This document shows, in pieces, positions 29,494 to 60,080 of a stretch of 64,000 nucleotides of DNA. The notes below the pieces were generated by a model that had not been told where the DNA came from, searched no databases, and worked only from the letters and a program-made list of their open reading frames with translations. The stretch is taken from contig JAYWIR010000008.1 in the NCBI GenBank assembly GCA_036172245.1, positions 2,480,001 to 2,544,000 on the forward strand, written 5' to 3'. The stretch's first letter is position 1, and each line of letters begins with the position of its first letter. The DNA is from Raillietiella orientalis (taxonomy: Eukaryota). The position numbers and the translations under genes are program-made.

Positions 29494-29540
29494 AGAAAAA
29501 AAAAAAAAAAAAAACGAGAGAGAGAGAGAGAGAGAGAGAG
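29494..29540. repeat. Poly(A) run followed by a (GA)n microsatellite
   Basis: About 19 A, then CGAGAGAG... read directly from the sequence. Confidence 0.9.
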
Positions 29541-31869
29541 AAATCTTTTACGGTACGGATCTCATAAAGTAGTCGTGACTGAATTTAAACATTTTGTCAC
29601 TCTGCTCTGCATTCACAGAGTTTCGTGGAGGCTGCTTCGATCGTGGAAGCATCGTTACGGACGCGAAGGTGAGTCGAGGATCCCATCATCTGATATCAGA
29701 ATACTAAATAGAGGGCCGTGGTAAGAACCCACGCAAATGCAGCCAGCCAGCTCTGCGGCTGTTTCCTCGCTCACCATGCACAGAACAGCAGCGGTCTCGC
29801 ACGTGCGGCGGGATGCAGGACTGTCCGCGAAACCCACGACTTACCACCGTCCTGCACAGAGAATCCTGTCTCGCGTGTCCCGTGGTGCCTTCCAGGTTTC
29901 CCTGGTGAGTTTTCCACGCAAAATCCCTGATAGACAACGGGGAGCAGCTTCACAACGCTTTCCTGCTTTCCCCGTAAGCGGACATGGGAGGCCCCCAAAG
30001 TAACAGCTGAAACCGGCATCTGCCTCCGTGTGACTGGATGCCTACTTTTTTTTCCAAATACAGAAAGAAATCTCGAAAACTCTCTATTTAAAAGTGTCTT
30101 TTCAATTAGTTACTCCGTGGTAATTACATTTTCTTTTCTTAATCCTTCTCCCCCCCCCCCTCTCTCATTCTCTTCGCCGTCAAAGTTCCTGTCGCTTCAC
30201 CTGTCTATTTGATCACTTCTCCCATTTCCCTTTACCTATTCTCCCACACTCCCTCTCTCCTCTTACAGGATTGCCCATCCTTGACTGGAAAGCATGTTCA
30301 GAGAAGCTGCTTTTCAAACGGGATTTCATTTTATGCCAATCGCTCTGCGTGAGGAGCTCATTTCGACCTGGCAGTCTCGGAGAAGATTCCAAGAGAGGTA
30401 CCCGGCAACAGCGGACGATGCTTTGTTATTTTCAGATTCTTTGCATGAAACGGCCACCACCACCGCGTTCTCTCCTTCTATTGGGAACGATCGGCCATCT
30501 TTTGCCCATCGTATATTTGTAGAGCCAACTTTTCGAGAACGCTTTTACTCATTCTTTTCCTAATTGGGCGGCCACGCCTGACTAGTCCATTCACGTGCAA
30601 ACCGTGGCCTGACTCTTCAAAAGGTCACAGGACTTCTATCCTTCCTTTTTCCTTTACGGAGTTATCAAAACCAACCAAATCGCTGCCATCCTATCTGACT
30701 GCAGAAGCTCTGGAACGATCGTTTCTTCACATACGGCAAGCCCTGGCACCTTTTAAATCCAAATGGGATTCTGAGGCAGCTTCCAGTTCCAGGTACGGAG
30801 GGGTCGGTTGCGCGAAGGGCGTAAATTCGGCTTTCCAGTCAAGGAAATCTTGCACCCCCCTGGGATAACGGACCTAACTTCCGGTCCAACCGAAAGATGC
30901 GCCGGATGTTCCGCGTTCGTCTGCAGTGACCTCTTCCGCGGTCTGGTAGCAGTAACTGTCTGCAGCGCCAGGGGACGAAAGTCTGCACGATGGATGCTTC
31001 AAACTTTTTGAACTTGTGGCGTCTCCAGGAGAAGACGGCGCAAACGAAAAAATCACTAAGGCATCACGCACTCTGCAGAGAAAACAGAAGAACCCAAAAG
31101 ACTGCCACCATCCTAGGTCAGTGGGCCAACAGAAAGATGCATCTTCCTTTGACTGATCACATGAAAGGTTGAGATTCCTTCTCCCTTCCTCGGTCCGGCC
31201 CTGCATTGCGCTTCCGTTCCATCCCATCAACGGAATGGCCGTTTCTGCGTGCCGCTTATATGGCGTTCCAGTTGGCAACTTTACCAAGTAGAAGAAGCCA
31301 GCAACACTGGCTCGAGAACCAGTCCGTTTGACATCCCGCAGTTTCCAGGTCTTCACCTCAGGTGCTAGTTGTTTTTTTTTGGCCAAATGCGTGATTTGGG
31401 AAAGTCTTGCGCATGAGAGCACAAAAGGCTTTCCGAGTACCCCCCTTTAAATTTGCTTTGTGCCGTTTCCGTGCCTCCCGCAAACCTGGGGAGACGAAGC
31501 CGGCGCCTGGAAGGGAGGGGTAGTTTCAGATCTCGACATTCCGGCTTCCTTCCATGCGTTCCAACATGGTACTCTCTTCCCACCTCCCTGGCGTGCGATT
31601 CTTAAAGGGCGAGGTCATACAAGAAATCGACAGAAAACGAAACATTCACCACGAAAGTGACAACTTTCTTTCCTCTTTTCTTTAACCACAGGAACCACGG
31701 AACGAAAGAAGAAAACTGTGCTCCTGTGCCGCGAAACCTCCTATACAAACATTCGCCCCCTCAGCTCGCAAACGCGTCCGTGGAATGGAAGAACAGAAGA
31801 AAAAGAAGGAAAAAAGGTGAATTTGATGTCCTAGGACCAACTGTAGCAAGGAATCTGCGGGAATCTACA

Positions 31870-32700
31870 GAGATCCGTGAGCTGCACCGCTTGCCCGTGC
31901 AGCGCGCTCACAAGTTTGTTTTACACCTCAAAGCTGAGCTGGGTTCTTCGACACGGTTCCATGCCACCCGAGGGTGGGTAATTCTTCAAGATAAGGGGTA
32001 CCCCGGGAGGAGTCCGCCCTACGAATCCAGGAAGGACTCGGAGTCCGTTCCTCTCATGCCTGGGGAGGGATCCCCGGAAATGGAGATCACCTCCACCCTG
32101 GTTGTCTCCGATGGGGAATCCAGAAGAGAATCCTACTTCCTTATTCTCTCCGGAGGACCCCCCGGGGGTTCTCTCCATTCTTTCTTTTCTGAAGGGAACC
32201 CGGAAAGGATCCGATCCTGGAATTTCTTCTCTGGAGGAATCTCCCGCAAGGAATCTGCTCCTGTTTACTGCTCTGAAGAGAACCCAGAAGGATGCTTCCG
32301 AAATTCAGAAGGACGCAGCTTCCCCGAAGGGATCGGCTCGCTTGTCTGTACTCTCTGGAGAGGTGGTGGAGACACACCTACTCCATCAGTACGACGCGGA
32401 GGGTCCTCCCGGAATGGGGGATCCGCTCCTTCATAACCCGAGGGGAGCTCCCACTCCGTGATTCCTGGAAGGACCCGGAGGGTCGACCCCTTTTTGTCCC
32501 GGCCCTCATCGGGGGCATCCGGTTTTAACCGCTGCCAGTGTCGCACCCGGATGAATGTAGGCCAGCCCGCGTCATCTTGTGGGGTGAACTCGGAACCCAC
32601 AACGCACTGCGTCGATTCCTTCGGAGTATTCGAACCACGGCGCATGGTGCCACGCGCGGAGACCACCATAACCACACAGCCACCGATGCGGGCAGCTGAG
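31870..32700 (-). mobile_element. tRNA-headed dispersed repeat (SINE-like), copy 2
   Basis: B-box GGTTCGAATAC (32636-32626, minus). The body aligns by eye over several hundred bp with 41040-41800. Confidence 0.75.
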
Positions 32701-39829: not shown

Positions 39830-42800
39830 GCAACGGATCTACGTAGGTAGGTGATGACAAGCTCATAGAACTGCAGCACCGTTGCGATGCGTTACCAACT
39901 ATTTATCCAGGCACTGTGAAAAACACAAAACACACTACAAGAGCGGGCTGGGAAGACGACCGTGTTCTCTTGGGATTCAACGCTTTCCTTAGATCATTAA
40001 AAGCATTTCCTTGATACGGGACTTTTGCAGAGGGGACTTTTCAAACAAGGATCTTCATAAACAAAGATTTGTATCTCCAGGCTCTGGAATCTTCTCGAAG
40101 AGGAAGCTTCCCATTGGAGGAAGCCATCCGCATCCTTACTGTATATCTCTGAAGCAAATTTTTGATCTAGGGGCATGACCTTGTGCTCTTGGAATACCAT
40201 GTTTGCCTGGTGTGTGACGAGCTCGGTGTTCCAAAGCACTGCTCAAGGAATTCATCTCAAGGCAACGCAGTACCTGCCTGGAGACGGCAGTGTTTAAAGG
40301 CAACACGATAGTGTTGTGAGGACAGAATGGTTTTCGTTGTAACTTGTCCTGCACAAGACTTCTTGGTTTACCTGTTTTTTTGCTCATCGTCGTTTATCGC
40401 TTAATTAAAAAAGATTTGGTCCATAAAAGGCCCGGATGGAATAAAACGCTCGTGATGCAACAACGGCGTTAAGAAAAACGTATAATCTCCCCTATTTTTC
40501 CCACCTGTGCATTCGAAGATGTCTTTTGCACGAACGCATTCTTTAGGAAAAAAAGAACAAAGGTCATCCGAGTGCAAACATTCAGCTTGCTTATTTTAGC
40601 TTCTTCGTTTTTTTTTTTTACCAATTCTTCCACCCATTACCACTGCAACACTCGGAAAGAAGCCTAAAGCCGGAAACCTACCCTCTGGCAATTCAGTCAG
40701 TTGGTCCATGGAAGTGAAAGCGTGCGGTCTCGTCGATCAGAATGTTCCAAGACTGTTCCTCAGTGTCATTATGACATAAGACAATCTTTATGCAAAATGA
40801 TTGAAATGGTTGCTTTGCTCTGGTGTTTGTAAGTAAATACTGCCGTCCTTGCTGTTTACCGCCTATATATTCTACTCCTACGCACCCTAATGCACTCTGA
40901 TGATGGATGTCCTTTGGGTTCTTCTTTTTCTGTCTTCGCTGTTTTCCTTCCAGCTTTTCTTCGGGTTTTCTTTTTTTTTTTTTTTGGTTCGCTCAAGAGC
41001 CATCGAGCGCCTGGCAGCTCATGCAGCTCTTTCATGCTGTTCGACGCCAGCCGAGGGTGCGTGTCATTCTTCAAGATAGATGGCACCCCGGGAGGGGGTT
41101 CACCCTATGAATCCAGGAAGGGCTCGGAGTCTGTTCCTCTGATGCCTGGGGAGAGATCCTCGGAACGGAAATCACCTCCACCCTGGCTGTCTCCGGAGGG
41201 GAACCCTGAAGGGTTGTTCTCTCCGGAAGACTCCCAGGGGTCCGCTCCATTTTTTCTTCTCCGAAGGGAACCCGAAAGGATCCACTATCAGGAATTTTTT
41301 CTCCGGAGGGATCCCCACAAGGGATCCGCTCCTGTTCACTCCTTTGAAGAGAATCCCAAAGGGATGCTTCCGAAATTCAGAAGGGGAGCTGCATCACCAA
41401 AAAGATCGCTCTCGCTTCTTTGCACTCTCTGGAGAGGTGACGACACACCTGCTTCATCAATACGAATTGGAAGGGTGTTCCCCGGAATGGGGGGGTCCGC
41501 TCCTTCAACATCTGGAGAAGTGGCTACGCACGTGCTCCATCTGAACAAACCGGAGGGTTTTCCACAATGGGGGGTCCCCGCTCTCTTTTGCACAACCGGA
41601 GGGGGAGAAGTCCCCACTCCTTGATTCCTGGAAGGACCCGGAGAGTCGACTCCCGATCCCGGTCACTCGTCGGGGCATCCGGTTTGAACCGCTACCGGTG
41701 CCGCACCCGAATGAATGTCGGCCAACCAGCGTCATCTTGCAGGAGGAACTCGAACCCACGACGCACGGTACCACGCGCGGAGACCGTAACCACAGAGGGC
41801 AGTATTGCCGTCCTTACTATTTACTGCCTTTATATTCTACCCCTAATGCACCAAAATCGCACCATGTCCGGAATTCTGTCAGTATTGGTCAAACTTCACG
41901 TTTGAAGTCCGGCCAAGAGTTCCACGTGGCAATGTGAAATTTTCAATGGAAACGGTCTTTCATGACAGGGAGCTTGGAGGTTGGAGGAGTCTCCCCCCCC
42001 GGAACGGGAGGGTTCGCTCCTTCAACATCTGGAGAGGTGATGACGCACCTACTCCATCTGAACGAACCGGAAGGGTCCTCCACAATGGGAGGTTTTCCCG
42101 CTCTCTTTTTGCATAAAATAAATCACCTCGATATGAGGAAACGTGCATTTCTTACCTTTCCAAAAATCTCGTTAAACTCATCCAGCGTAGTGGCAAGCAT
42201 TTCGTACTTGTAAGTAAATTCCTTGAAATCCGCCTGCAGCTGGGCGTCTTCATCCTTGTTCAGCCTGCAGGGACATTGGGTCCCCAAGTATTCACTTTCC
42301 ATGTTTTTGCACAACGCGTACTTGAGTTTTTCGTGTATATTTCTAAAGTGCGTGGTTAGGTGGTAAGAAATCACTGTAACAAAGCTCATGAACATCGTAA
42401 ATCCGATGCCCCCATGAATCAGACTTACGAACTGGATGCAAGACAGGATTTTGGATTGCACAAGGGAATCGTCCAAACTGAGCGCCCGACTCACAAAGAA
42501 AATGTCTGTCCCGTCGGCAAACATATATTTCAAGAATGTCAAAACGAGGATGGAAATCTCATGGATGATGGACAATCCATAAGCGACGACAGCAAATTTT
42601 ATTCCAAAATTCTGTTCTTTCATTGCTTTGCTAAGTTCACTTTCCCGCAGTTTCCAGTTTTCGAAAAACTTCTCCAGTTTTTTCGCATTCCACAGTATTG
42701 TAGTACACATGGAAAAGCTTATGATGTACAACATTTCGTATTCCATGTTGCTCATTAAGTGTAAGATGGGCATGGTCATTAGGTCTCTGAAAGCTACGAG

Positions 42801-43133
42801 GGCAATTGCGACAGGTACACTGCCATTTAATGCCAACGTGAATATGCATACTGCGGTAAGGAATGATGATTTCTTAAATGTACAAGTTGTTTTGGTAATT
42901 CTTATGGCACTGCATCCTGTGCACATTGCGAAAGTCATCACTGGTCTCAAAGATGCATACAGACGTGACGAAACGTCTTGCTTTGGTATGCTTATGGTAT
43001 GGGTGGGGTCAGGGGGCAAGTCTTTCTCAATCTGAATATTTAACTTGACATCATCCGGGAATAACCACTTAGTTTTTCTTGCTGGCTTCTGTGATAAATT
43101 ACCGTTAGAAGAATGGATTTTATTGCCAGGCAT
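39830..43133 (-). pseudogene. Gustatory-receptor-like (7tm_7) gene: long intact exon 1 (43133-42156) with apparently decayed downstream exons
   Basis: Exon 1 has several hydrophobic helices and ends YEMLATTLDEFNEIFGK|GTAAG, typical of GRs before TM5. Remnants SLEIQIFV (~40080-40060) and ATVLQFYELVITY..LQ (~39885-39828, frameshifted) resemble the GR C-terminal TYxxxxxQ motif. Exon 1 is confident; the downstream assignment is tentative. Confidence 0.6.
40838..41851 (-). mobile_element. tRNA-headed dispersed repeat (SINE-like), copy 3, with ~50-bp terminal direct repeats; further partial copy at ~41960-42110
   Basis: B-box GGGTTCGAGTT (41757-41747). Body homologous to copies 1 and 2; 40838-40895 resembles 41803-41851. 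Confidence 0.75.
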
Positions 43134-43394
43134 TGTTCCCAATTAAAGGAAATATAAACTCTGAATTGCTACCATACCATAATATAATATAACAGTACCA
43201 CTTGGAAAGACTGTATCACTTGGCAGATGAATACAAGGCAAACTGAAAAACAGGCAAGCAAAGCTGTAGAACTCAACATCAGAGCATCAAAGTTTAATGA
43301 GCTTATTGATTGGCATCAACTCAGTTGTGATGCTGGGAAAGCAAGCAATCAGGCACTTAAAAACTGTCATTCTCCTTCATTTCTCTAGAGTAAA

Positions 43395-44570
43395 ATGAAA
43401 CTTATCATTGATGTGGATGCTGGAGTAGATGATGCAGCAGCTATGTTCATTGCCCTATCAGCTGTGCAAAAAAATCTTGCAGAAATAAAGGCTATCACAA
43501 CAGTATGTGGAAATACTACTGTTGAAAATGTGTGTATCAATGTGATGAGAACTCTGAGAGCCTTCTCCATGCAGGATGAAGTCAGAAAAATCAGTTTGGA
43601 AGTTTTGAAGACTCCTGTTCATTTCAGATATCTGTATATAAAGGCTGTGGTCTGCCATTACTAGAGCCCCAGATCAAGTCTGATTATTACTTTGGAATTG
43701 ATGGATTTGGTGACATGCCTCCTGAACCATCCCTACTTGCTAAAATCCAAGACAAGCATGCAGTGTTTGCAATGATGGAGTTTGTGAATGCCCATCCTGG
43801 TTGGTGAAAAAATACCCTAAATTAGTATCTATTAAAATGCATTACTTTAAGGGGAAATTACACTTATTGCACTTGGACCACTTACTAACTTGGCTGTAGC
43901 AATAACATTAGACCATCAATTCACCAAAAAACTGAAAGCACTTTACATGATGGCTGGAAAGTCAGAAGGTGATTTACATTTAAATTCTAACTCCCAAGTT
44001 TGAGGACTTCCAGTTTAAAAGCTTGGAATTTTACAGCAGTAAGGAGTTACTGTAGTGATGCCTTGCATTTTCAGTTACGGACAATAAAATACCGGTTGGT
44101 GAATTCAACATCAGCTGTGACCCAGAGGCAGCACACATTGTGTTTCGAAGTTTGCAATGCCCTGCGTATCTTGTACCTTTTGAAGTGACCTTGCAACATG
44201 GCATACCAATGGTAATATTCCGGAAATAATTCCTTGATCACATGGCTGAAAGGTTTGGCGAACATCCGTTCTGGGTGCCATCGCCAGTCCTCAGGCACAA
44301 CTGATAAATGCGGCTGAGAAACTCACTCTGTCTGACGAGATGTGGTTCCTATGTGACCCCCTTGTGGTCGCAGCTTCGCTGTTCCCAAACATAGTCAAAA
44401 AATCACAATCCTGCCATGTCGTTGTGGAACTTCATGGAACTCACACGAGAGGACAGATGCTCCTGGACCATGACTCAGTTTTGGGCAAAGAGCCTCAAGT
44501 CCATCTGATAACCGAACTGGATCTTGAGCTACTGAAAAAGATCTATCTAGATAGTTTTGGTCATGAATAG
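43395..44570 (+). CDS. Inosine-uridine preferring nucleoside hydrolase family protein; exons 43395-43580, 43628-43799, 43852-43968, 44075-44211, 44253-44570
   Basis: Motifs [11 protein letters not shown] (DxDxxxDD), [48 protein letters not shown] and [12 protein letters not shown]. All introns are GT-AG and in frame; AATAAA at ~44595. Confidence 0.93.
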
Positions 44571-45233
44571 AATCATGGTCAGCGGTCCTAGTTCAATAAA
44601 TGTAATTTCCACTGAGAGAAATCAACAGAAATAAATTTTGTATGCGATTGATTCGTGTTTTTGTACGAGTATTCACAAACTCCAGCATTGCAGGCACTGC
44701 ATGCTTTCCAAATCCGTCACATCCGAAGGAACTCACTTTTGTATGAGTACAGACTAGCAATGTGGCAGAATCGCAAGCACGAAGAGGGGAAAGCTGACGA
44801 TGGCGGAAGGGATCACAAAAAAAAAGGAACATCAAGGGGATGCCTTCAGGCGGCCTCTTTGAGCCAGCGTCCTTCCTCGGGAAGGCTCCGAGCAGCGGCC
44901 GCAACGGCTTCGCGACTCAATCCTTTCAGACGCATAATAAATACACTCCAAAGTATCCATTCTCTCGACAGCACGGAGCAAATAACTCATTTTCCATTTC
45001 AACGGACGAGACACTCTCTTTGCTCTCCGACGTCTCTTCCTAAAAAACTTTTCCCTAATGAACCTTCGTCGAAAACCTACTTTCGCTTTTTTGCGCTACC
45101 GGCATTCACACGCCATTTATGCTTACGGGAGACGGTGGCCATAAGTCTCCCCTTCGGCAGAGTTGACTACCTACTGACTCGTTCTCAACAATCCCTCATT
45201 CTTAAACTCCTGTCCGTACCAGCTACAGCCCTT

Positions 45234-45385
45234 CACGTATACATTCGAGCCGGCCAGTCCTCTACGTACAGGTTTGAGCCGGCCAGTTCTCCACGCGCAG
45301 GTTTGAGCCGGCCAGTGCTCCACGTGCAGGTTTGAGCCGGCCAGTTCTCCACGTACAGGTTTGAGCCGGCCAGTTCTCCATGCGT
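45234..45385. repeat. Tandem array of a 29-bp unit (GAGCCGGCCAGTTCTCCACGTACAGGTTT), about 5 copies
   Basis: Units start at 45247, 45276, 45305, 45334 and 45363, with few substitutions. Confidence 0.95.
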
Positions 45386-45500
45386 ACTGTTTTTACGGCA
45401 TATTCCTTCACGCGCAGACAAGCCCACCAGTACACAAAAAATTCCCAGACACTTTACTGTTACCCTTTCAGCATCCCCACGAAACTCAGATAACACGTAG

Positions 45501-45529
45501 TTAGGTGGGTAATACTACACACCACCTGA
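45501..45529 (-). promoter_or_regulatory. Rolling-circle replication origin: stem-loop with nonanucleotide TAGTATTAC
   Basis: Plus strand AGGTGG GTAATACTA CACA CCACCT. GTAATACTA (45509-45517) is the reverse complement of TAGTATTAC; AGGTGG (45503-45508) pairs with CCACCT (45522-45527). The nonamer lies about 75 bp upstream of the Rep ATG. Confidence 0.85.
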
Positions 45530-45592
45530 ATGTGCATCTCCTCAGTATATATACCACTTTCTTCACTCAGTCGTTTCGCAGTCTTACCAAAC

Positions 45593-46802
45593 ATGTCTTA
45601 CGCTGCTTGCACTCACTGGTGCCTAACTTGGAACAATTACAGCGATGAAGACCTCGACAACATCAAGAAATGGTGCCGTCTCAACTGCTCCCTCGAAAAC
45701 ATCAAGAAATGCTGCGATGATAGCATCGCAAGAGAGGAAGGAGAACGAGGTACTCCACATTTCCAAGGATACATCCAGCTACACGAGTCAAGAACACTTC
45801 CACGAGTTAGACGACCACCTTTCTCCAAACGCCACCTGGAAAACGTCAAGGGATCTGCTAGTCTACCGTACTTCAGCAAACAAGATAGCCAACCATGGAT
45901 GCCTCGACGATAACCCAGGAGAAGAGCACTATGAGGAAAAGGTAATGAAAACCAATTTAATCTTCATATCTTTTGATTGATTCTTTCCAGATCCTTCAAC
46001 TTACCAAGTCCGGTTACAACGAGAAATATATACTGGAACACCACACACGCTTCTATAGCAAAAACATCAACTTTATCAAGGAGTGCTTCAGAGTGTACAG
46101 CAACGAGTCAGCATTAAATCCAATGGCATCACTTCGTTTACGCCAATGGCAGCTTGACGTCCTTGCCATCCTACGAAGACCTCCGTATCAACGAAACATC
46201 TACTGGATCAAGGACGCCAAAGGCAATACAGGAAAAACAACTTTTGCCAAATTCCTATTCCTGCGAAGACATGCAATTTACATGCAAAGTTGCAAGAAAG
46301 CCGACGCTGCCCTTCTATACAACGGCGGCCAGTCATCGTGGTCGACTTCACCAGAGACGCCAAAGACCCGGTACAATACGGCTTCATAGAATCTTTAAAA
46401 AATGGAATCCTCTTCGACCCGAAATACCAAGGGTCAATAAAGTATTACGAAACCCTTCACGTCATCGTACTGGCAAACTGGGAACCCGACTTCAGTAAGC
46501 TCAGCTACGATCGTTGGACAATCATCGACAATAATCATTCCGTCAGGAAGAAAACAGCGTGGACAATGGACGACAACGGCTCAACAAATCAAGCCTCCCA
46601 GGGAGAAAAGAAGCACAAGAAGCTAGTCGACCGACGGACGAAGTTGAGGTCCACTAGACGGTCACGGCAACGAGCCACGACGGTCGCCGTGGACTCGCGG
46701 AGATGCGATGCTTCCAAGTGGAAGTGTTCTCAAGAGGGGCGCCGACCAGCACCCGAAGTGGACTTGACGTGGAACGTGCTGCTCGAGAGGGCATTAATTT
46801 GA
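45593..46802 (+). pseudogene. rep: Endogenous CRESS-DNA virus-like replication protein (HUH endonuclease + SF3 helicase) with a 49-nt intron and two frameshifts
   Basis: RCR motif I WCLTWNN, motif II TPHFQGY, motif III YFSK; LRQWQ; Walker A GNTGKT (46222-46239), Walker B IVVDF, YGFIESLKNG, motif C VIVLAN, Arg finger SYDRW. Frameshifts near 45900 and 46330; intron 45942-45990. TATATA at ~45546. Confidence 0.93.
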
Positions 46803-47799
46803 TCTCCCTCCCTCCACCGTCGAAGTAGCGGTGATGAGGGACAGGGTCGAAAAGACATCACCCTGCATTGACCAATCAAGTAGTTAATCACTATGACCAA
46901 CCAAATGGCTAATGAAGAGTAGGAGGGTAAGGAAGGAAAGCCAAAATACCAACACACCGAGCATTCGTACCACTCGTGAGGAAAAGTCTTTACGAAACGT
47001 TTCAAGCAAATTTTTGCCAAAGTCCTCATATTCTCACTTCCTCACTTTCCTGGCTCGCGGCTTCTCATCATTCCACAGCTATGAGAAGAAAAAAAAAAAA
47101 AAAGAAGCTTCTCCTCGTTTCCTCAACATTTACTAACTACACGCATTAATTTTTCAGCATGTCGCGATTAAATAAAACTTGACTCTAATTTGCTGCATGT
47201 AGCACCAATTCTATTTAACTCAAAATCTGAGCAATGATCATCAACTTTCAATTAATCCTGTTCTGATACAAAAGATAATTACACTTGCTGCTTGCATCTT
47301 TTTTACCCCCTTCTTCGATAGCATAGTCCTTCACTATTCAATACTGATGACTGCACAGCACGACACAATACAACAACCCATAACATGGAAACAGTCATCT
47401 GCTTCCATAAGCTGCACCCCTTTGTCTAGATACACGGGAAGGTTTATCTAGGCAAGGGTATGGGGGTAGCGGCCACGACTTGACCAATCTTACAAACAGA
47501 GCGACTTCCACACAATGACCTCATTATTCAATTTACCATCGCCAAACAAATTTGCAGCCCCATTCTACTTCAGTATGAAATGGTATCCACGTATCCAAAT
47601 CTTAACACATACACGTAGTTTTTCACTTTTATCCATTTCCCATGCTGTAACTTGATTTGAACTCTTAATCACTCTTTATTAAGAAAATCAATCGCCTCCG
47701 AATAATCAAAATAGCGATATGCAAACACCAAAATGGCTTTTGTAGGGAAGGCTAAAATGTGAGGTCACTAATGACACGAAACACCCAAAGGGAAAGCGG

Positions 47800-47950
47800 T
47801 AACATCGAGAGCACTTGTCAGCATCCGTGAAAGGATGCAGAGGACCACTCCAGGCGACCGGTGATCCCATTCCTGCCCTTCCCTCCCCGAGAAACATTTC
47901 CCTCCCTTTTTGCGGATTTTTTTTTCCTGTTTATCTTTTTTTTCTCCTGG
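47800..47950 (+). mobile_element. Short 3'-end fragment of the L1/Tx1 family
   Basis: AGCATCC..AAAGGATGCAGAGGACC..GTGATCCC followed by a pyrimidine-rich tail, as at 23450-23570 and 50930-51070. Confidence 0.6.
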
Positions 47951-49229
47951 TCCCCCACCGCCAACGGAGAGGACCCCACCGTGCCGGCTCATGGCAAGTC
48001 CTCCGCGCGTGGTAGAACCAAGTGTTCTACCACGAAGATCAATTAATGACGATTTTATCATAAAATTTTTATAAAAAATTTCAATAATAAATGCCCCAGC
48101 AAATCCTGGTGAAAAACAACGAGTTTAGATTTAACGTTACCGCTTTTATTTTGCATTTATTTGATATGCATATTATTAATAGCAAGATTATTTCAACACG
48201 CAGATTTATGAATGTATTTTAACATAATATTATAAATATCTTTATTGTGTATATTAATATACGTTTTTATATATAGATCAATATATATTTATACATAGAT
48301 TAACATGCAAATTTATTTTAGCAAACATATTTATTAATATAATTCACAATATGCATTAATATATAGTATGAAGATTAAAAAGATATGTTTATTATATATA
48401 TTCATATATACGAATTTATATGTAAATATGTGTGATAAAGATATGCTTTTACTTTTTATGATCTTTCGGACTTTTCGGGATTTTGAACCAACCCGAAGCA
48501 ATGGTGATCCATGAGCTCCTCATTGCTTAACATGTCAACTGAGCGAAGACTTCGCAGGTTCCAAGTCCAGATTCCAGCAAGGGTCGTTTTCGGGGCATGC
48601 AGACGATCTGACCCTCATTTCCGGCTCTTCAACCGACTGGCAAGCACCAAATGTTGTCGTTGGGTTGTTTCCTAGAAGGGGGAACTCTAAGAAGACCCAA
48701 ACGGCATGTAATTCCGAGCCAAGTATGACCCTGCTCGTGGCAGGGAGGATGACGGGAACAGAGAACACCTCCATCTCCCGGCCTCGCACTCGCCACTTCT
48801 TTTTTACCTGGTCATGCCAAGTCGTTTGTTTTTTCAAAAAATGAGCGTCTCAAAATTCGGGAGGGAGGTTGCCAAGGGAAACAGGCGAAGGTCCGCAAGG
48901 AGTGGTCACCCACACTCAGGTCGGTTGCTGATGGAGTCTGGAACGAAAGGACGGGGGGGAGCAATAAATAAAAAAAGGGTAGGGAAGGAGGGGATCGAGT
49001 ATATTTGGTAGAGGCCATTCTTTCTCTACAGCCTTCTCGAGGTATGGGCGAGATCTCTTGGGGCAGGTGCATCCACTCGACGCAGTCCTCTCCAAGGCTG
49101 CTGCCAGGCGGACTACTTCCCGTTGCTGCGAGCCCATGGCTCCGGGACAACACGAGACGCCAAGATGGCGCGCGCATGCACCATCCGAACGTTGCGACGG
49201 CCTTAGCTCCGTTCGCAAAAAGGGAGCCT

Positions 49230-49745
49230 CACCATGGAGCTGATTGAAACCTCCCTCGGAGAATTGAGTCTCCAGAGCGTCAGAAGCGCGCTGCTCACGT
49301 CGGGAGCACCCTCCGTAGAATTTGGGAAGCGTACCTCCGAGATTTCTCTTCAGGGAAGTAAGGAAGGAGCGGATCCTTTCCGGGTTCCCTCCAGAGAAGA
49401 AATGAAGAGAGGGCCCCACAAACCGGGGAGTCCTTCCGGAGAGAACAAGGAAGAGGTGGTTCCCTTCAGAGATCCCCCCCAAACGAAAGAGGAATGAACT
49501 TTTTCCTTTGCAGTCCTTCCTAGATTCATATAGTGGTTGTCCCCCTGGAGTTACCCCTGTAACTTGGAGAGTCACATGCTCCCTCGGGTGGCGTGGGCAG
49601 AGTCAAAGATCTTCGTGAGCCACCCCTGAAGAGGCGGACGGTTCTCCAGCACCTGGAGAACCAAAAAGAAGAAAACCCGAAATAGAAAACGTCGGAAGGA
49701 AAGCAACGAGAGCAGAAGAATCCCAAAGGACTTCCACCATTCACA
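49230..49745 (+). mobile_element. tRNA-headed repeat family, headless copy 4 in the opposite orientation
   Basis: GGATCCTTTCCGGGTTCCCT..TCCTTCCTAGATTCATA..CCCTCGGGTGGC..AGAAGAATCCCAAAGGAC is the reverse complement of blocks in copies 1-3. Confidence 0.7.
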
Positions 49746-49759: not shown

Positions 49760-51070
49760 CCTCCTCCACCCCAGCTGACATCAATGGAAGGACCGAGGAT
49801 CTCCTGAGAAAAGCCCTGCGGAGCATAGGGAGGTCCAGAGTCCGACTCAAAGACTTGCGTGCTCCACGTAAGGACGGCGGACTGGGCTTCCCTAGCTGGA
49901 GAGGATGCAGCGTCAGCTCCAACTGAGAAGGCTCGCCCTCGCGGCGAGATTATGGATCACGCCCTGGTGCGCACCAGCACGGCTCCTCACGAAGAGCGCA
50001 ACCGGATGCGAGGGACTCGCATCCCTCCTCGTTGCTCGAGAGAGGTGGCTGAGGCGTTGCGGGCACCAACTCCGCCGGATGGAAAAGAACACCTGGATCT
50101 CCTGCCTCCCCGCGAACTGCTCTGCCTGTCTCCAGGAGTCCCATCTTTGCCTGGGGGAAGATCCACGGCGCGAGCGAGGCGGCGCATGCCTGCCTGCAGT
50201 GAAGCATCAAAACTCGCAAGTCGTGGGAGGAGATCGTCCGCAGCCTGCAGAAGATGTGGTGGACCACGTCTACTCCTTTTGTCCCAGTGCTGCCCCACCT
50301 AAGGGACGCAAGGGACAGCGTAATCCCGGCAAGATGGGAAGTAAGGTGTTGCATAGCAGCAAAAACAAAAATTCTGGGGACGTGGACAACTCGGGGAGTA
50401 AGGGAGGCTGCGACCCCAGTGTCCCACTCCACGGACTTTTACGCTGGGGAGAGCTTCTCAGCATCCCTCCAGAGGAGGTAAAGCTGTCCCCAGCGTGCCG
50501 AAATACAGTGCAACTCTCCCTATTGAGCGGCAGGAATCGGCGCAGCTGGTGTTGCATTGAGGAATTCCATGCAAAGCGCGCCTTCACCACTGGACACGAG
50601 GGGGGAGGGCGTAGACGCTGAGCGAGAAAAGTGCAGGAAGAATAAGACCCTCCTGCACCTTCTGCTATCCTCCGACACATTTGGGATCTCCTTGAGATCC
50701 CAGGATCCCCGGTATGCGCCCCCAGGGACATCTTCAAGGGCCTCTTCGCGCATGCCACACTGCCGTCACCAGCTGCCTCCCTCTCAGTCCTCTGCTCCCT
50801 CCTCGGAATCATGGCAGTCTGGAACGCCAGAAGAGTTCGAAATGGCAGGGGCGCCATCCACTGGTCGCGGATCTTCGTGAAGACTGCTTCGGGATGGCCC
50901 CATCTGGGCAAGACACGGGCAGAACTTGCCAGCATCCTAGACAGGATGCAGAGGACACCTGGAAGCGTACCACGATCCCTTCCTCTCCCCTGATTACCTC
51001 CTCCCTTTGTAAAATTTCCCCTCCCCTATTTTGTTTGTCTATTTTTTGCTTTTTCTTTCCCCTCCCTCAC
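49760..51070 (+). mobile_element. L1/Tx1-type LINE ORF2 C-terminal fragment and 3' end
   Basis: EDLLRKALRSIGRSRVRLKDLRAPRKDGGLGFP (post-RT thumb, homologous to RVRLKLLCRPRDHWGTG in the 18 kb element) and AVWNARR near the end. Confidence 0.7.
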
Positions 51071-52890: not shown

Positions 52891-55655
52891 TTCCACCCGC
52901 GCACGCCAGAGTGTTTATTAGAATTTAAAATGAACTTTCAAACCGTGGTAGGAGACGTGGTCCTACCACACCCCATTGTGGTCCATTGGTCCATGGACCT
53001 TCCGGGTCGCCAATGCGCAGACCAGTTGGGCTCCCCTCGGCAGCGAAAGGGGATGGAAGAAAAGAGTAAATAAAAATAAATAAGAATCTTTAGGAGGGTC
53101 GGGAAGGGACCACTGTCCACTGGGAGGGAGTCTACATCCGATACGCCGGGTCCGCGGATTCAGTTTCCGACCCGCGACAGGCACCAGATGAGTCAGGTCG
53201 CACCATCCAGGAAAAGAAAAAAAAAAGAACACGCAACCAAAGGATGAGTCTCCCTATCGGCCGAACAGCATCCTTCACGGAAGTGGCTCGCGCGTCACGG
53301 ACGCAGGGTGAGCATCGCGTTCCCGGAGAAGCGAACACGAAACACCTGGGAGGAAAGCGACGAAAAATCCGGTCGCAGCTGCATCCCGTGTCAAGAAGAG
53401 CAAGGTCTTCCGGGCAGGAAGGGAAGTGTCGGAAGAGGCGATCTCTTGGAAATGTTTGCGAATGATAAAAACGTCACGGGAAACGTGCAGCCCGTTTGGA
53501 AATGAAGTCGTGTCAACAGCTGGAAAGAGCCGGTGAGTTTCGTGGGGTGATACCTCCCAGGATTAGTGCGCACCAAGATGTGCTCACACCGCTTTCAGAG
53601 GTACTGATGATGGGCTCCTCATTCAATTTTGCTGCTTTCCGCGTTCTTCCAGTTCTTCCTTTTTTTTTTCTTTTTCTTCCTTCGATTGTTTTGTTCGCTC
53701 AGTGACTCATCGACCGTTGCTTCACCCCACGGAGACATCGGAGAGGCTCGAAGACGCCTCCCTCCTCCCCTTCTCCCTTGCAGCTGGGTTGAGCGTAAGA
53801 CAAATAGTGGGGCTTCCCGAAGGGTCCACTTTCAAATCCCCCCGCTACTAGCCAACGGGGCAGCCGACCGCTTTCCCGGATGCACTCCCGAAGCCCGAGC
53901 CATCCCAGCGTCATCTTTCGGGAGGACTCAGAACCCGCAACGCATGCAGCTCAACGTCGATCTTTATGGAGCTGATTCTGAACAGCCCCGCTAGGCGTCG
54001 CGCACGGATGCCGTGGCTACACGGTCTCCTATGCGATATTAGCGCTCGCAATGCAAGGAGCTCTATCCCGGCTCATTCTAGGGACGTCCCCACAAACACT
54101 GAAAGCCAAACTCGCTTGCCAGGAGATTGCATCTCAGTCAAGCGAGCCCTGTTGCTATCGGATCTGAATTCTTCCTCGGTCCACCTTTGCGCAAGCAGAC
54201 CTCTTCCAGTGCGTCATGATGCACCATGTTCCAGGCTTGGGGGATCAGGAATCGCTCCACGGAACGCGAAGGGTAACTCAGTCGCGTAAGGGGACGGCCG
54301 GGAAGAGAATTCTTGGGCGAAGCCTGCGCCGATGTCGCAGCGGACCGGCACGCGGAGGGTCCCGGAAAGCTCCCTGCAGGCTTCATTGCGGGCGACGGGG
54401 ACTCGTCGAGGAATGGGGCATCTCTCCCGGCTTCTCCCCTCCCTTCCCTGCTTGTGGGCAGCGGACCCGTTCCACGGAACGCAGGGTGGTTTGAAGGATG
54501 GCCTGCGGCGCATGTGTACGACCCACGCCGCCGGTAGAGGCAGAGGGGCAGACTGAGCGAGCGTTCTCCGATGCCCAGGAGCCGGGCCGCCGAGGAGTCC
54601 CGGCGAACGCAACGCTGCCACATCTGGTGGAGGGAAGGACCACTGCCGAAGACGGGGCGCGTCCGCCTTCGTCAGGGTCGATCCTTCCCACTTTCCGAGC
54701 CCAGTCGCGGGTCTCTCGTGTTGGACGCGACCACCCTTCTCCCCGTCGGACGAGCCAAAGGGTGGCCAACAACTGGAGGGATGATCGAGTGAGTGTACGT
54801 CCGCCTTACCGACTCCCTTTTTTTCCCTCTCTCTCCGGCACGCCTTTCTTGCGGAGCCCAGCGCGCGGGTCTCACTCGTGTTGACATCCCGGCAGGGAGT
54901 TCGTCGATTCTCCCTGCGATTCGGGTCACCTCCGGGCAGAGCAGGCTCGAAAACCTCTTTGGAGCCGAGTGGACAGGGAAATGGTACGAAGACGACGAGA
55001 GGATGAGTACGTCTGCCGGAAGTGTCCACCTGCAGAGGGATTGGAGAAAAGTCCTTGGCGGAGTTCGTCGCCCGCTGGCGCAGACTCCTCTGGGTTGAGC
55101 TACCGGCTGCGGGATCGGGGTCTCCCCTAGCTCATCTGCCCGCTGGCTACCCCTGCCCGTGGGCGCACCTGTGGGTCCACCCTGATGCGTGTGGCCTCGC
55201 CGGAGGGGTTGGTCGGTACTTCGCGATCTCCTGTCGGCCGCACCTCGCATCAGGAAGCGACGACCGGTCCCTGAAGCCGGGACCGATCCGTCCCGGCGCA
55301 TACCCCCAAGGATTGTGTGGCCGCGCTATCTGCCCGCGGCGGATCGCAGGAACAGAGCGCCTCGGTTGCTGCCGACACTTCTATCCCCCAGGAGTTGAGT
55401 GGGGCGTCCCGGCCCCACCGGGACGGGGAGGAGGGGAGCGAGGACCGCTTAGTCGATAGTCCCGAGGTTGCCGCTGTAGCTGCGAGCGGGTGCGCTCGAG
55501 AGGTTCCGTACCTGAAGGAGCTCCCTCAGGGAGCGGGAGTAAAGGGCAGATGAGAGGAGGGAAAGGGAGAGAAACATCTTCCGGGAAGCTTGTTATTCAC
55601 AAGGATTTTATTTCCGGTGCCCCAGGACAGACGGGTAGCGGACCCGCAGCGCCGA

Positions 55656-56504
55656 CTACGTCTTCTTCACGACGGGCCTGGCCTTTCCGTAGGAGGGCTT
55701 TGACTTGCGCACCTTCTTGGGTCTTCCGGGCTTCCGGGGTGTCGAAGGCGGCTTGGCCCGGCCCTTGGGCGCCTTCGGCTTGGCAGCCTTTCTCGCCGGC
55801 TTCCTCCTCCTGCTCTCCACGCCGTCTTCCTCGTCGCCAGCTTCTGAGGACTTGGCCGCCGCCGCTGCGGGCTTGGGCTTCCTCTCTTCCACCTTCTTGT
55901 CAGCGGCAGCCTGCTTGGGCGACTCTGCGCGCTTCTCAGAGGGGGAGGCCTGCTTGGGCGACTCTGCGCGCTTCTCAGAGGGGGAGGCCTGCTTGGGCGA
56001 CTCTGCGCGCTTCTCAGAGGGGGAGGCCTGCTTGGGCGACTCTGCGTGCTTCTCAGAGGGGGAGGCCTGCTTGGGCGACTCTGCGCGCTTCGCAGCGTCG
56101 TCCTTCTCCGCTTTCTTGAGCGCCTCAGCATCGCTGCCCTTCTTGGCGGCGGCGGCGGGCGCCGCAGGTGCGTCCTTGGAGGGTTTATCCCTCTTCCTGC
56201 GCTCGAGAGGATGGATTGCGGCCCGCGCCTCCACGGTTTCGTTCAGGACCTGCGGCGGAAGCGCCCTTCACGTTCGGACCGGGGCGCGCAGGGGTGGCCG
56301 GGACTTACCTCCACTCCGGAGATGGCGACGGGGTTCGCGACGGCGGCGGCGACGCAGCAAAGGGCTGGAAGGAGAGGAGAGCCGCTCGGTCCGTGGTCCG
56401 CCCTCACTCCTTCCCCTCCCCCCCTCCTCCCCCATCCCGCCGGCCCACTCACCGATGGCGAGCACGGCCAGCATGGCCGCCACGGGCAGGGGACAACGGC
56501 ACAT
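55656..56504 (-). CDS. Secreted, Lys/Ala/Pro/Ser-rich basic repeat protein (~233 aa); exons 56504-56453, 56364-56309, 56249-55656
   Basis: Spliced N-terminus MCRCPLPVAAMLAVLAIALCCVAAAVA (signal peptide), then NPVAISGVEVLNETVEARAAIHPLERRKR. Strong donors GTGAGT and GTAAGT with compatible phases; upstream TATATAA; AATAAA at 55612-55607. Confidence 0.8.
55909..56091. repeat. Coding minisatellite, 39-bp unit x about 4.7 (AESPKQASPSEKR)
   Basis: Units start at 55909, 55948, 55987, 56026 and 56065; nearly identical. Confidence 0.95.
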
Positions 56505-56594
56505 CTCTGGCGACGACACTCTAGGGTGCGGGGGGCTTCGGCTGGACACTGGAGTGGCGACTCCTTTGCTCCGGGGACCTGCAGGGGAAGGTCT

Positions 56595-56628
56595 CGACTG
56601 CTCCGCGTGGGCCGCGGAGGGTTATATA
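56595..56628 (-). promoter_or_regulatory. TATA box plus Inr-like core promoter of the secreted basic protein gene
   Basis: Minus-strand TATATAA at 56628-56622 stands out in GC-rich context; an Inr-like GCAGTC has its A at 56599, 29 nt downstream. Confidence 0.65.
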
Positions 56629-57439
56629 CCGCACGACGTCGCCAGGTCACTGACCTGCCTCGACTCGCGCTTGAGGCTGCGCCTCCCGCGCGTGACCTCG
56701 AGCGTCGTTGTGCCCACCCGCTGCAGTCCGACAGCCCAGCTGCCCCTTCCCCTGAGCCCCAGGGACGCCGTCGACCGGCCGCCGAGCCCAGACACCCCCT
56801 ACCCAAATAACCCCCGGGGATGAGGAAGGGAACATCCTCCAGGTCCCCGACGGAACCCCCCGGTGAAACAGCTCGAATCGACCACTCCCCTCCCTCTCTA
56901 CTTCCGATCCTTTGCCAGTCTCGTTCGGCGCACGCGAGAGAGCGCCGGTCTCTCTGGTCCAGCGTCGGGAGGCTACCCGGCTGCCGCCGCCGCTGCTGTT
57001 GTTCCTCCCCCTCCGCCTCGGGGTGCGCTCGTGCCGGCGTCGCCGCCGCGACGGCAGAGGTCGCAACCTCCGCGCGAGCTACAGGGTTGCCGACCCCGAG
57101 GAGACCCTCCCTTTGTTTGCGCACGCACGCCCCCTGCTGTTCCCCATCTCTCCCGCCTCTGGCAGTCGCGAGAGCGAGGAAGAAGCTACGGTCGGCAACG
57201 GGGAGGAGCCCCTCGTCCCCTACCCTTCGGGCGCGGTGGCGCCGGAGTGGAGAAAGATCCATGCCACCCTCCCTCCCTTCCTGCCCTGCAAGGAACTCTT
57301 CCGCCCTTCCCCCCTCCCCCTTGGAGCGGGCCTGCTCTGGAAAGGAACGAAAACGAGGTGGGATGAAGGGTGGGGACTGCGCGTGCGCGCACTCCTTCTT
57401 TATGAGGGTTTCCTATCACCGCCGTCGGCGGCGCTCGCG

Positions 57440-60080
57440 TCAGCAGCAGTTGCGGATCCTGGTCGAGGAATCGCTGGACTCCCTGCTAGCAATCTGGAAA
57501 GGAAAAAGAGGAGGCGCGTAGGGAAAGAGGGGGAGGAAGGAGAGTGAAAGGGGCTACTCACCCTCGACTGCAGCGACCGGACCTTGTCGTGCTCCTTGCC
57601 CAGGGCCGAGCGGTACTCACACTCCACCTGTCGGAAGGAAGGGGGGAAGAGGGGGCTGGTCAGGAAGCAGGAGGAGGGGGGAGTAGCGCCCTCACCTTTG
57701 TCTTCAGCGTATGGTAGTGCCTCTCCGCCGTGCGGCGGCGCTCGCGCTCTGCCTCCAGCTCCTCCGCCTGCTGTATGCGGACTTGATCCAGCTGCTTCCG
57801 GAGGAAGGAGGCCTCCTCGGGCCCCAGGGCGGTCTCCTTGTAGGCGGCGAACTCTCCACGAATGTGGTCCACCTCGGCGCGCAGGCGCTCGGTCCGATCG
57901 CCCGCCATGTCCCGCTCTGCACGGCAGCGTTCCGCGCAGGCACGGACATTCCGTAGCTCGCAGGCCGTCGCCTCCGTCTCCGCCAGCAGGCGGCAGCACG
58001 TGTCCTTCTCGCGCTTCAGGGCAGCCTCCCTACTGGCCAGGTCGTACTGCAGGCTGGTCAGGTTGGCCTCCACTCGCGTGACCTGGGGGTGATGAGTGGT
58101 AGTGGTGGTGGTAGCGGTGGAAGGTCCGCACCATGGGAGACGCTTGCTCAGTGTCCCTCCCCTCCTCGACTCCCCTCCTTTCTTCCTTTCCCCCCCTCCT
58201 TTCTTCTTCTCATTCCTCACCTGGGACTTCAGGCTGTTGAACTGAGCCATTGCCTGCTGCCGGTCCTCGTCGCAGAAGTCGAGCAGCCTGCGCTGCTCCT
58301 CCAGGCCGCGCTGAGCCCGCGCTGGGAGATCGCGTAGGTCGGTGCGGGCTCTCTCCACCTCGTGGCGCAGCGCCTCGCCATGCCTGGCCGCCCGGTCGAC
58401 CTCCGTCTGCAGCTTGCAGCACTCCACCTGGTGCAGAGCAGCCTCCGCGCGCAGGGATTCGATCTCCTCCACGTGCAGCAGAGGATCCTCTCTGCCGCCT
58501 CGCGCCGCTTCCTTTTCCAACGCCTTTCCCTTCTCGACCACCACCACCGCGTCGGCCTTCTCGGCCGGGAGACGGCGGGACGTCGCCTCCCTCGGGTGTG
58601 CCCCTGCGGCGCGCTCCTCCTCGTCCGTCGTCTGGGGGCAGGCGGGATGGCCGCGCGTGGATGAGGTGCGAGCACGCGCGCCGAGACCTACCGGCTGCTG
58701 CTGCAGAGACTGCAGCTCCGCCTCCAGAGCGTCTGCGCGCGCCCTTTCCCGGCCGACCTCCTCGTCGGCGCTCCGCCTCAGGCGCTCCATTTCCTCCCGC
58801 GAGGCGGTCTCAGCCTGCTCCCGCGCTCGGGAGGCATCCCGCTTCACCTGCTCGCACTCCCGACGCAGCTCCTCCAACTTCTTCGCGTTCCTCTCCTTGT
58901 CCTGCTCCTGCTGTTTGATGCTCCAGAGCAGCCGCTCCAGGCTGGCGTGCAGGTTCTCCGCCTCCAGCTGCCGTTCCTCCAGCTGCTCCCTCCTCCTGCG
59001 CAGCTGCTTCTCTGCCTCCCGATGCAGCTCTTCCGAGCTTTGCAGCTTGCTCTCCTGCTTGGCGAGCTACGGGAAGCGCCTGGCAGGTGGGAGGGAAAGG
59101 AAGCGCGCCCATCGCCCGCGAGGAGCATTTCAAGCACTCCGAAGCCCCTGGCAACGCTGGATGCACTCTTTCGTCATTCTCCCGGTCCCATTCCCCTCCT
59201 CTCCCCTCCCAAAGGCGAAGACGGCAAGCAGTAGCACTCCTGAAGTCACTATCCCCCCCGGGGCAGCCTGGAGAAACGGAGGCGGGAGGACGCCGAGCTC
59301 CCCCGGCTCGCAAGGCCGACCTCCTCGTCGGCCTCCGCCTCAGGCGCTCCACTTCCTCCCGCGAGGCGGTCCTGGAACCCCCCTCTTTCCTCCTCCGCGG
59401 TTCCCAGGTCCACCGCCACCCCTTTCGCTCCTCTTCTCGCGGGAGCGCTCCTTTAGGCGCCGGGCTCTCCTCACGAGGTCTTCAGATGAGGAGGGAGAGG
59501 GGCGGAAGGGAGAAGAGCGACATCAAGAGGGGGGGAGGAGCTGCAGACCTTCGCTGTCGCCAGGGGACCACAGGCCTACCTTCTTCTTGAGCGTTTCCAG
59601 CTGCTTGTCATAGACGGATCCCTTCGTGGCGGTCGTCTGCCTCACGCTCTGCAGCAGGGAGCGCAGCTTCTCCACTTCCTTCCTCCTCCGGTCCAGGTCG
59701 TTCGTGATGCGGTCGAACTCCCCTTTCTGCCTCTCCATCATCCGGCTGAGCTCGGCTGTCTCCCGGCTGTAGCTCTCCGACACCCCTTTGAACTTCTCCA
59801 GGTCTCCTCTCAGCGCTTCCAGCTGCTCCCCGGAGAGATCCAGCTGGCTCTCAATGTCCTCGATGGGGTCCTTCGAGATGAACTTTCCCGGGGGGAAGGG
59901 GGGCGCCTCGCTTTCGGGCGGTCCCCTCGCTCGGGGGTACTGGTCCTCTGCCTTGGGGGTCAGTGTACCTTCGACCTCGTTCGGGACGGAGCTGTGAGTC
60001 GGGGTGGAGCTCCCCGAGGGCATCGCGTCGTAGTCGGCTGGGGTGGGGTTGGAGGATCGTCGGTCTTGCTTCGGCGGCAT
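57440..60080 (-). CDS. Orphan long coiled-coil protein (~597 aa); exons 60080-59580, 59066-58692, 58631-58221, 58082-57696, 57627-57562, 57493-57440
   Basis: All five introns are phase 0 GT-AG, most with clear polypyrimidine tracts. The joined frame is open and E/R/K/L heptad-rich (DIESQLDLSGEQLEALRGDLEKFK; LEELRRECEQVKRDA; VTRVEANLTSLQYDL). No family recognised; the terminal exon is less certain. Confidence 0.75.

Follow-up and report, generated by a model that had tools for sequence, protein, structure and literature searches.

The DNA examined here is a 64-kb stretch (64,000 nucleotides, nt) of contig JAYWIR010000008.1 from the Raillietiella orientalis assembly GCA_036172245.1 (positions 2,480,001 to 2,544,000 of the forward strand). 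The whole stretch is called the window, and all coordinates are relative to its first nucleotide. Its central feature is an interrupted gene for a replication-associated protein (Rep) of the type encoded by viruses whose single-stranded DNA is circular and Rep-encoding (CRESS-DNA viruses), which is preceded by a hairpin that resembles a viral replication origin. An original prediction for this locus had listed, in order, a tandem array, a stem-loop, a TATA element at 45546, the Rep motifs and an AATAAA hexamer at 47171, and all of these are indeed present. The features of the locus are as follows.

45247..45380, no strand assigned: 29-bp tandem array with consensus GAGCCGGCCAGTTCTCCACGTACAGGTTT (4.6 copies with 92% matches according to Tandem Repeats Finder)
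45503..45527, minus strand: origin-like hairpin with a 6-bp stem (AGGTGG/CCACCT) and a 13-nt loop, TGTGTAGTATTAC, that carries the nonamer TAGTATTAC
45546..45553, plus strand: TATATATA, a candidate TATA box located 40 nt before the Rep ATG, with a putative promoter function
45593..45913, plus strand: first Rep reading frame with the HUH endonuclease domain and motifs I to III, identified by a PF02407 match, PDB matches, alignment and a structural model
45652..45715, plus strand: 39-bp in-frame tandem duplication between motifs I and II, encoding LDNIKKWC / LENIKKCC
45885..45905, plus strand: first frame change, at which homology leaves the frame that opens at 45593 and continues in that of 45897-45941
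45942..45990, plus strand: candidate spliceosomal intron of 49 nt (GT..AG), whose removal restores frame and colinearity
45991..46328, plus strand: linker and first half of the superfamily 3 (SF3) helicase, with RQWQ (46141-46152) and Walker A GNTGKT (46222-46239)
46325..46335, plus strand: second frame change (located by reading frames and homologue alignment), which falls after Walker A and before Walker B
46332..46556, plus strand: second half of the helicase, with Walker B VIVVDFTR (46332-46355), LKNG (46395-46406), HVIVLAN (46458-46478) and SYDRW (46503-46517)
46557..46802, plus strand: open extension of the final Rep frame, with a basic sequence that is rich in arginine and has no homologue (open reading frame listing and alignment)
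47171..47176, plus strand: AATAAA, indistinguishable from chance

The interrupted Rep gene

The start codon of Rep is the ATG at 45593. Its first reading frame carries motif I (CLTWNNY, 45620-45640), motif II (HFQGYIQL, 45758-45781) and motif III (YFSK, 45869-45880), and it then reaches a stop codon (45911-45913) because of the first frame change. The endonuclease piece matches the Pfam family PF02407 (Viral_Rep) with 29.8 bits against a curated cut-off of 26. Its matches in the PDB are nuclease domains of circovirus and nanovirus-type Reps (7kii, E = 1.4e-4; 2hwt, 0.003; 2hw0, 0.0096; 7lar, 0.062). When aligned with 23 full-length homologues, the H and Q of motif II and the Y and K of motif III occupy invariant columns. 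An AlphaFold model of this piece has a mean predicted local distance difference test (pLDDT) score of 75.9, and its comparison with BFVD gives 114 matches at E<=1e-3. The named ones among these are Reps of uncultivated CRESS-DNA viruses, with query-normalised template modelling (TM) scores of 0.57-0.70. The piece is a nuclease of the HUH superfamily, as is characteristic of the Reps of Cressdnaviricota.

The 39-bp duplication had been overlooked in the original prediction. Its two units (45652-45676 and 45691-45715) are 92% identical and form an insertion relative to the homologues, and the confidence of the structural model is lowest at this site.

All four pieces of the Rep gene are colinear with 20 full-length Reps, and every motif is in place. 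Specifically, GNTGKT, VIVVDFTR and HVIVLAN align to the matching columns of these 20 proteins, and the last helicase piece additionally contains the PKY motif. The predicted protein has the Walker A, Walker B and motif C elements of an SF3 helicase. The earlier description of a Rep with three rolling-circle replication motifs and the SF3 motifs is borne out by this colinearity and by the PF02407 match.

Also correct was the claim that two frame changes break the gene, which lie near 45885-45905 and 46325-46335. A third discontinuity had been proposed to be an intron at 45942-45990. This interval has a GC content of 26.5% and a pyrimidine tract ahead of the AG. Homology resumes at 45991 in the frame predicted by removing the 49 nt, and from there the match to the homologues is gap-free and colinear, and the interval is read as a candidate spliceosomal intron. 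Similar gaps in the neighbouring host gene, which have GT..AG ends and lengths of about 42, 50, 52 and 105 nt, indicate that an intron of 49 nt would suit the style of the host.

Related genomes were collected with a profile built from seven HMMER matches, which yielded 36 loci in IMG/VR, designated by L numbers. An open reading frame that covers the helicase was extracted from 27 of these, and in 10 of the 27 it is only 64-165 amino acids long, such that Rep is split. The interruption was read in three loci (L019, L022 and L024). In each of them a GT..AG stretch with a length of some 100 nt breaks the frame downstream of motif III, and the frame resumes about eight codons upstream of the position that matches the intron of the window. 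Candidate introns in the Rep linker are common in this group, and their position is not identical.

There are no stop codons inside the homologous part of the four Rep frame pieces, which would imply a fairly recent inactivation. The absence of stops over about 960 coding bases suggests that neutral divergence since the loss of constraint amounts to a few per cent at most. Beyond the region of homology, about 80 further codons follow in the last frame before a stop codon at 46800-46802. The homologues finish 4-30 residues after the DRW sequence.

The origin hairpin and other non-coding features

The stem of the hairpin is perfect, with AGGTGG (45503-45508) paired to CCACCT (45522-45527). The nonamer occupies 45509-45517 at the 3' end of the 13-nt loop, and the hairpin is located 76 nt upstream of the Rep ATG. 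Thus, a conserved nonanucleotide in a hairpin loop beside rep, which is a hallmark of CRESS-DNA genomes, is present at this locus. The nonamer reads on the minus strand, opposite to Rep.

There is exactly one copy of TAGTATTAC in the window, and therefore a single origin. Of 100 shuffles of the window that preserve dinucleotides, 17 also contain the bare 9-mer, which is weak evidence when taken alone. Its weight comes from its position and from the stem. When the entire hairpin pattern is searched with up to two mismatches, there is one occurrence in the window and none in 100 shuffles. Folding of a 66-nt single-stranded DNA segment gives the same stem as the centroid structure, with a stability that is not above that of shuffled sequences (z = -0.05).

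The related genomes provide additional information. A script detected the nonamer pattern NANTATTAC with a flanking inverted repeat in 33 of the 36 loci, and 13 of these 33 have the stem core AGGTGG...CCACCT in common with the window. An example is CCAAGGTGGTGGTTTAGTATTACCCACCACCTTGG, from the origin of L018. The sharing of the stem sequence with these relatives is the best indication that the hairpin descends from viral DNA and did not arise as a chance match.

The nonamer lies on the Rep strand in 28 of the 33 relatives and on the opposite strand in the remaining five (L006 and L029-L032). Thus, the hairpin and nonamer named in the original prediction are real, but their orientation is unlike that of most relatives. 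L030-L032 share with the window a nonamer that precedes Rep and is read on the opposite strand. In L032, Rep is split, and an open reading frame of 416 amino acids on the opposite strand converges on the 3' end of Rep. An opposite-strand origin just upstream of Rep suggests that, in the parent genome, the origin belonged to the capsid-coding strand and separated the 5' ends of both genes. One of the relatives with this arrangement, L030, is an IMG/VR contig of 8307 nt in which the hairpin and Rep repeat at a spacing of 3357 nt. This contig appears to be a concatemer in which a circular genome with a length of about 3.36 kb is repeated head to tail.

The 29-bp array is located 123 nt upstream of the hairpin. 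At least two relatives (L015 and L024) carry arrays of 22-23 bp with 2.6 copies in the intergenic region near the origin, and short direct repeats touch the hairpins of relatives, for example in L018, L023 and L024. The presence of repeats near the origins of relatives makes a viral origin of the 29-bp array plausible. The array may belong to the intergenic region of the virus, and any link to origin function is putative. Only a CACGTA hexamer is common to the array unit and the sequence adjacent to the stem.

The TATATATA motif proposed to be a TATA box occurs four times in the window. The AATAAA proposed to be a poly(A) signal is present at 47171, some 369 nt beyond the stop codon of the last Rep frame, but a hexamer of this kind is expected by chance. 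There are 52 copies on the plus strand of the window, or about one per 1.2 kb, and the copy at 47171 does not indicate a transcription unit. Rfam gave no matches in the window as a whole.

Relationship to other CRESS-DNA viruses

A HMMER search with the first helicase piece against 1.84 billion representative proteins produced 601 matches at E<=1e-3 and one at E<=1e-10. The best match is 49% identical over 68 residues, in agreement with the earlier proposal of an unclassified lineage, and the Rep has no close relative in the collections searched. The 10 best matches come from contigs of 1.6-3.1 kb and none of the 10 belongs to a cluster with a name, and the 12 best sequences, when read, are typical CRESS Reps. 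A word-indexed protein search gave 25 and 23 candidates, none of which is significant. With the second helicase piece, a scan of IMG/VR for close relatives found none. No close relative was found among metagenome contigs of the Joint Genome Institute (JGI) either, where three of 103 pattern matches are related to this piece at 37-38% identity over 49 residues. An Atlas look-up with the first helicase piece, to be read as a lead only, has a best score of 0.87 and returns mostly Cressdnaviricota helicase or Rep clusters and some parvovirus NS1 clusters.

The Rep pieces of the window are 26-47% identical, per piece, to those of the 36 IMG/VR loci. The best summed scores belong to L005, L003, L004 and L018, which are genomes of 2.1-2.5 kb, and replicons of about 1.0 kb (L008-L016) score only slightly below them. 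Identity to these small replicons is 26-46% across the pieces and 40-46% for the second helicase half. One of them, L013, matches the PDB entries 2hwt/6h8o at 1e-37. We take these structures to be the Rep nuclease domain of faba bean necrotic yellows virus, hence our label 'nanovirus-like' for L008-L016.

A maximum-likelihood tree was calculated from 89 rows, in which three window pieces were entered as separate, unaltered rows. The rows from HMMER were those of 250-420 amino acids among the first 80 matches, and the rows from the IMG/VR loci were open reading frames of at least 150 amino acids from 27 of the 36 loci, with L015 and L032 dropped for length. The loci left out were L025, L027, L029-L031 and L033-L036. 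Eight nanovirus-like rows form an exclusive clade with a Shimodaira-Hasegawa-like approximate likelihood ratio test (SH-aLRT) value of 100. The three window pieces fall outside this clade, with path lengths of 1.8-2.7, and no well-supported set in the tree contains either helicase piece.

These results bear on the claim that the helicase is of the nanovirus type. At the level of motifs this appears to hold, because the signature (G..GKT,.D..R, KNG...KY, ..V.AN, S.DR) is like that of L008-L016 and nanovirus-like rather than circovirus-like. The PDB includes the full-length circovirus Rep 7lar, which the nuclease piece matches, but neither helicase piece has a PDB match at E<=1, and a circovirus-type Rep helicase is therefore not indicated. 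However, the tree places the pieces outside the nanovirus-like clade, and membership in Nanoviridae/Alphasatellitidae is not supported by it, noting that the clade is named through the PDB link of L013 and that no alphasatellite reference was identified. In addition, members of these families carry the nonamer on the Rep strand of a single-gene circle of about 1-1.4 kb, and the nonamer of the window is on the opposite strand. The Rep is best called an unclassified Cressdnaviricota lineage that does not belong to the nanovirus-like clade as sampled.

The element in the window resembles the uncultivated IMG/VR genomes (L005, L003, L004, L018 and L030-L032) in Rep architecture and motifs, in its NAGTATTAC nonamer with an (A)AG(G/T)TGG... 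stem and in the candidate introns in the Rep linker. Those genomes have short iterons or 22-23-bp arrays near the origin. Unlike the element in the window, they are free, 2-3.4 kb long and equipped with a capsid open reading frame. With the nanovirus-type master Rep replicons (L008-L016) the window shares the nonamer TAGTATTAC in addition to the helicase signature, but all of their nonamers are on the Rep strand and their stems are of the GGGGC/GCCCC type, whereas the window Rep has a candidate intron. Likeness to Circoviridae resides in the nuclease domain, which matches circovirus Rep structures. Within the genus Cyclovirus, the origin is on the capsid-coding (non-Rep) strand between the 5' ends of the genes and there is an intron in rep, and the layout of the window is similar. 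The cyclovirus nonamer is TAATACTAT, and that of the window is of the circovirus/nanovirus type instead.

Probable integration in a host chromosome

The locus is likely to be an endogenous viral element, namely a DNA fragment from the genome of an unclassified CRESS-DNA virus (Cressdnaviricota) that resides in the chromosome of a host that is probably an arthropod. A piece of viral genome would have been inserted as DNA at a site with a nucleoside hydrolase gene on its left and a host repeat on its right. This piece would retain Rep with its own intron, the upstream intergenic region with the origin hairpin and perhaps the 29-bp array, but no recognisable capsid gene. CRESS Reps are known to bind near the origin, to nick it and to unwind DNA as hexamers. 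By analogy, the Rep of the parent virus would bind near the hairpin, the motif III tyrosine would nick TAGTATT/AC in the loop, and the protein would then unwind the DNA as an SF3 helicase hexamer. The parent layout would be cyclovirus-like, as proposed above from the orientation of the origin and as represented by L030-L032.

Viral sequence at this locus is contiguous with host genes and carries disabling lesions. The earlier statement that a CRESS Rep and an origin hairpin are embedded in eukaryotic chromosomal sequence is upheld by the presence of host genes on both sides. Two of the host genes are the following.

42123-43142, minus strand: chemoreceptor-like open reading frame, single exon, 339 amino acids
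43396..44570, plus strand: inosine-uridine nucleoside hydrolase gene with short introns, with PF01156 matches on two exon pieces and with start and stop assigned by eye

The nucleoside hydrolase gene ends 1 kb upstream. Likely poly(A) signals (AATAAA) for it are located at 44595 and 44630, and its introns, by eye, are roughly 42-105 nt long. The nearest Atlas clusters to the chemoreceptor-like open reading frame are arthropod 7tm_6/7tm_7 gustatory or odorant receptors (score 0.94), which we treat only as a lead. A Ribosomal_L7Ae exon and reverse-transcriptase pieces are recognised by Pfam farther off in the window. On the right, a copy of a host repeat that begins at about 47768 bounds the region of the element. 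Thus, the viral DNA is confined to an intergenic gap of roughly 3.1 kb, and the Rep element is present in a single copy in the window.

A 36-nt inverted copy of an exon piece of the nucleoside hydrolase gene (43754-43789) is found at 44671-44706, about 100 nt beyond the stop codon of that gene, with 33 of 36 positions identical. It might have been introduced as filler DNA during the repair of an old break close to the left edge of the insertion, or it might be the partner of a hairpin in the 3' untranslated region.

The original prediction called this locus a complete replication module. A tblastx comparison of 44001-48500 with the 36 related genomes found no match outside Rep at E<=0.1, Pfam searches at E<=10 with four open reading frames of the flanks found nothing, and all frames of both flanks are rich in stops. 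The element is linear in a chromosome, and a capsid gene, as expected of the small circular genomes of Cressdnaviricota, is not found, with the proviso that capsids diverge fast and that a short remnant may exist. Since Rep is without stop codons, an equally old capsid gene would be expected to remain readable, which argues that only part of the viral genome was inserted or kept. There is also no terminal redundancy and no second nonamer in the window. In the rolling-circle replication of such replicons, a circle is released only if two origins are nicked or the template is circular. With one origin, a Rep frame that is broken twice and no circle release, the chromosomal copy would be inert. 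The term 'complete module' is overstated, given the missing capsid gene, the single origin and a poly(A) signal at chance level.

The strand on which a capsid gene would begin in the proposed layout contains an open reading frame of 87 codons (44832-45095, minus strand) about 410 nt from the hairpin. Arginine and lysine are abundant in its translation, a start codon is lacking, and neither Pfam nor tblastx supports it. This strand is purine-rich, and the reading frame may be an effect of composition.

Several observations weigh against the interpretation as a viral insertion in an arthropod chromosome. Pfam recognises no helicase family on the two broken helicase pieces. The stem of the hairpin has only 6 bp (relatives scored 5-16 bp) and, as noted above, ordinary stability. 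The offset of about eight codons between the intron and those of the relatives leaves its viral origin unproven. The arthropod assignment is derived from one language-model look-up, and Pfam gives the chemoreceptor-like open reading frame no chemoreceptor match. The viral borders are imprecise, with the left one somewhere between about 44650 and 45247 and the right one between 46556 and about 47770. Finally, the two junctions and the two frame changes are taken from the assembly, in which errors may have produced them.

This last point opens the way to other explanations. The frame changes could be assembly errors in a full-length Rep that is still used as a host gene, or the 106-codon nuclease frame (45593-45910) could be expressed alone as a co-opted protein. 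The four homologous pieces with zero stops, the retained catalytic H, Q, Y and K residues, the TATA-like box and the well-formed short intron would all be compatible with continued use, and a passage in Liu et al. 2011 (PMC3198968) describes some transferred Rep genes that are conserved and expressed. However, neither frame change is located in a homopolymer run, which makes a typical long-read indel error less likely, and any product of the sequence as assembled would lose the helicase. We regard a functional host gene as unlikely for these reasons. Another concern is that DNA of an exogenous CRESS virus was misjoined into a host contig, given that the junctions depend on the assembly and that CRESS genomes are, according to a passage in Dennis et al. 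2018 (PMC6069186), frequent contaminants of invertebrate samples. But a replicating virus would not have two breaks in its Rep frame or be without a capsid gene. Furthermore, the element is a single copy deep within the 64 kb, is flanked by host genes on either side and has no terminal redundancy, and both the GC content of Rep (0.45) and its CpG observed/expected ratio (0.99) are close to those of the flanks. Such a chimera or contaminant is highly improbable.

Rep and its origin might also have travelled as cargo of a larger host mobile element by transposon capture, rather than by direct viral insertion. Retroelements and repeats are dense in the window, and a host repeat begins at the right side of the gap. 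However, the region is not enclosed by terminal repeats, whether inverted or direct, and the weak inverted matches that exist between the flanks have the wrong order for a terminal inverted repeat. There is neither a second copy in the window nor an adjacent transposase, and we judge this account to be the least probable of those considered.

If the locus is indeed an endogenous viral element, it could have been kept because it is useful. For example, as an arthropod element situated among transposon remnants, it might be transcribed into small RNAs against a relative of the parent virus that still circulates, and its preserved hairpin could be recognised and nicked by the Rep of a superinfecting relative. 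We find such a role improbable. If it were true, the locus would be a decoy or a fragile site, and it would provide the first firm host assignment for an unclassified CRESS lineage.

Endogenous elements derived from the Reps of circular single-stranded DNA viruses are well documented in animals, as set out in three reports (PMC3198968, PMC6069186, PMC6186406). Among invertebrates, these reports describe mostly Rep without capsid, many arthropod hosts and often lineages outside the named families (PMC3198968; PMC6069186; PMC6186406, Rosario et al. 2018). The element in the window is like them in being Rep-derived sequence in an animal chromosome without a capsid gene, but it retains an origin hairpin and a candidate intron. 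The terms 'stem-loop', 'nonanucleotide', 'origin of replication' and 'intron' are absent from the main texts of PMC3198968 and PMC6069186, whose supplements may list such features. The non-coding parts of animal CRESS fossils are rarely discussed, and at the level of titles and abstracts no animal fossil with its origin kept was found described. There is a plant precedent in Nicotiana, where integrated geminivirus-related DNA keeps the origin beside Rep.

Most CRESS-DNA viruses are known from metagenomes only and have no known hosts, such that an integrated copy links a lineage to a host group. This argument has been made for cycloviruses and arthropods in a section of Dennis et al. 2018 (PMC6069186). 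The value of the present locus resides in a host link and a record of layout for an otherwise unsampled Rep lineage, from a copy that is little decayed. Its preserved non-coding parts (the origin hairpin, the promoter region, the intron and perhaps the array) would reveal the layout of the parent genome in addition to Rep. Our understanding of how such viruses or fossils work is unchanged.

Other parts of the window contain repeated sequences. The host repeat to the right of the element is dispersed, as the minus-strand frames 23094-23477, 47768-48124 and 50270-51025 share a ...VLCILSRML... peptide. A second dispersed repeat, which is GC-rich and shares ...PYESRK.SESVPLMPGE..., is found at 31606-32436 and 40833-41624 on the plus strand and at 48916-49602 and about 28791-29561 on the minus strand. 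Two adjoining frames at 18586-20347 (minus strand) have PF00078 matches and represent a copy of a retroelement of the type without long terminal repeats (non-LTR), with at least one frame break. The region 54000-60000 is a block of 64-68% GC, compared with a minimum of 29% elsewhere in the window, and has very long overlapping frames on both strands. Near 55.9-56.0 kb there is a coding tandem repeat with a unit of 13 residues.

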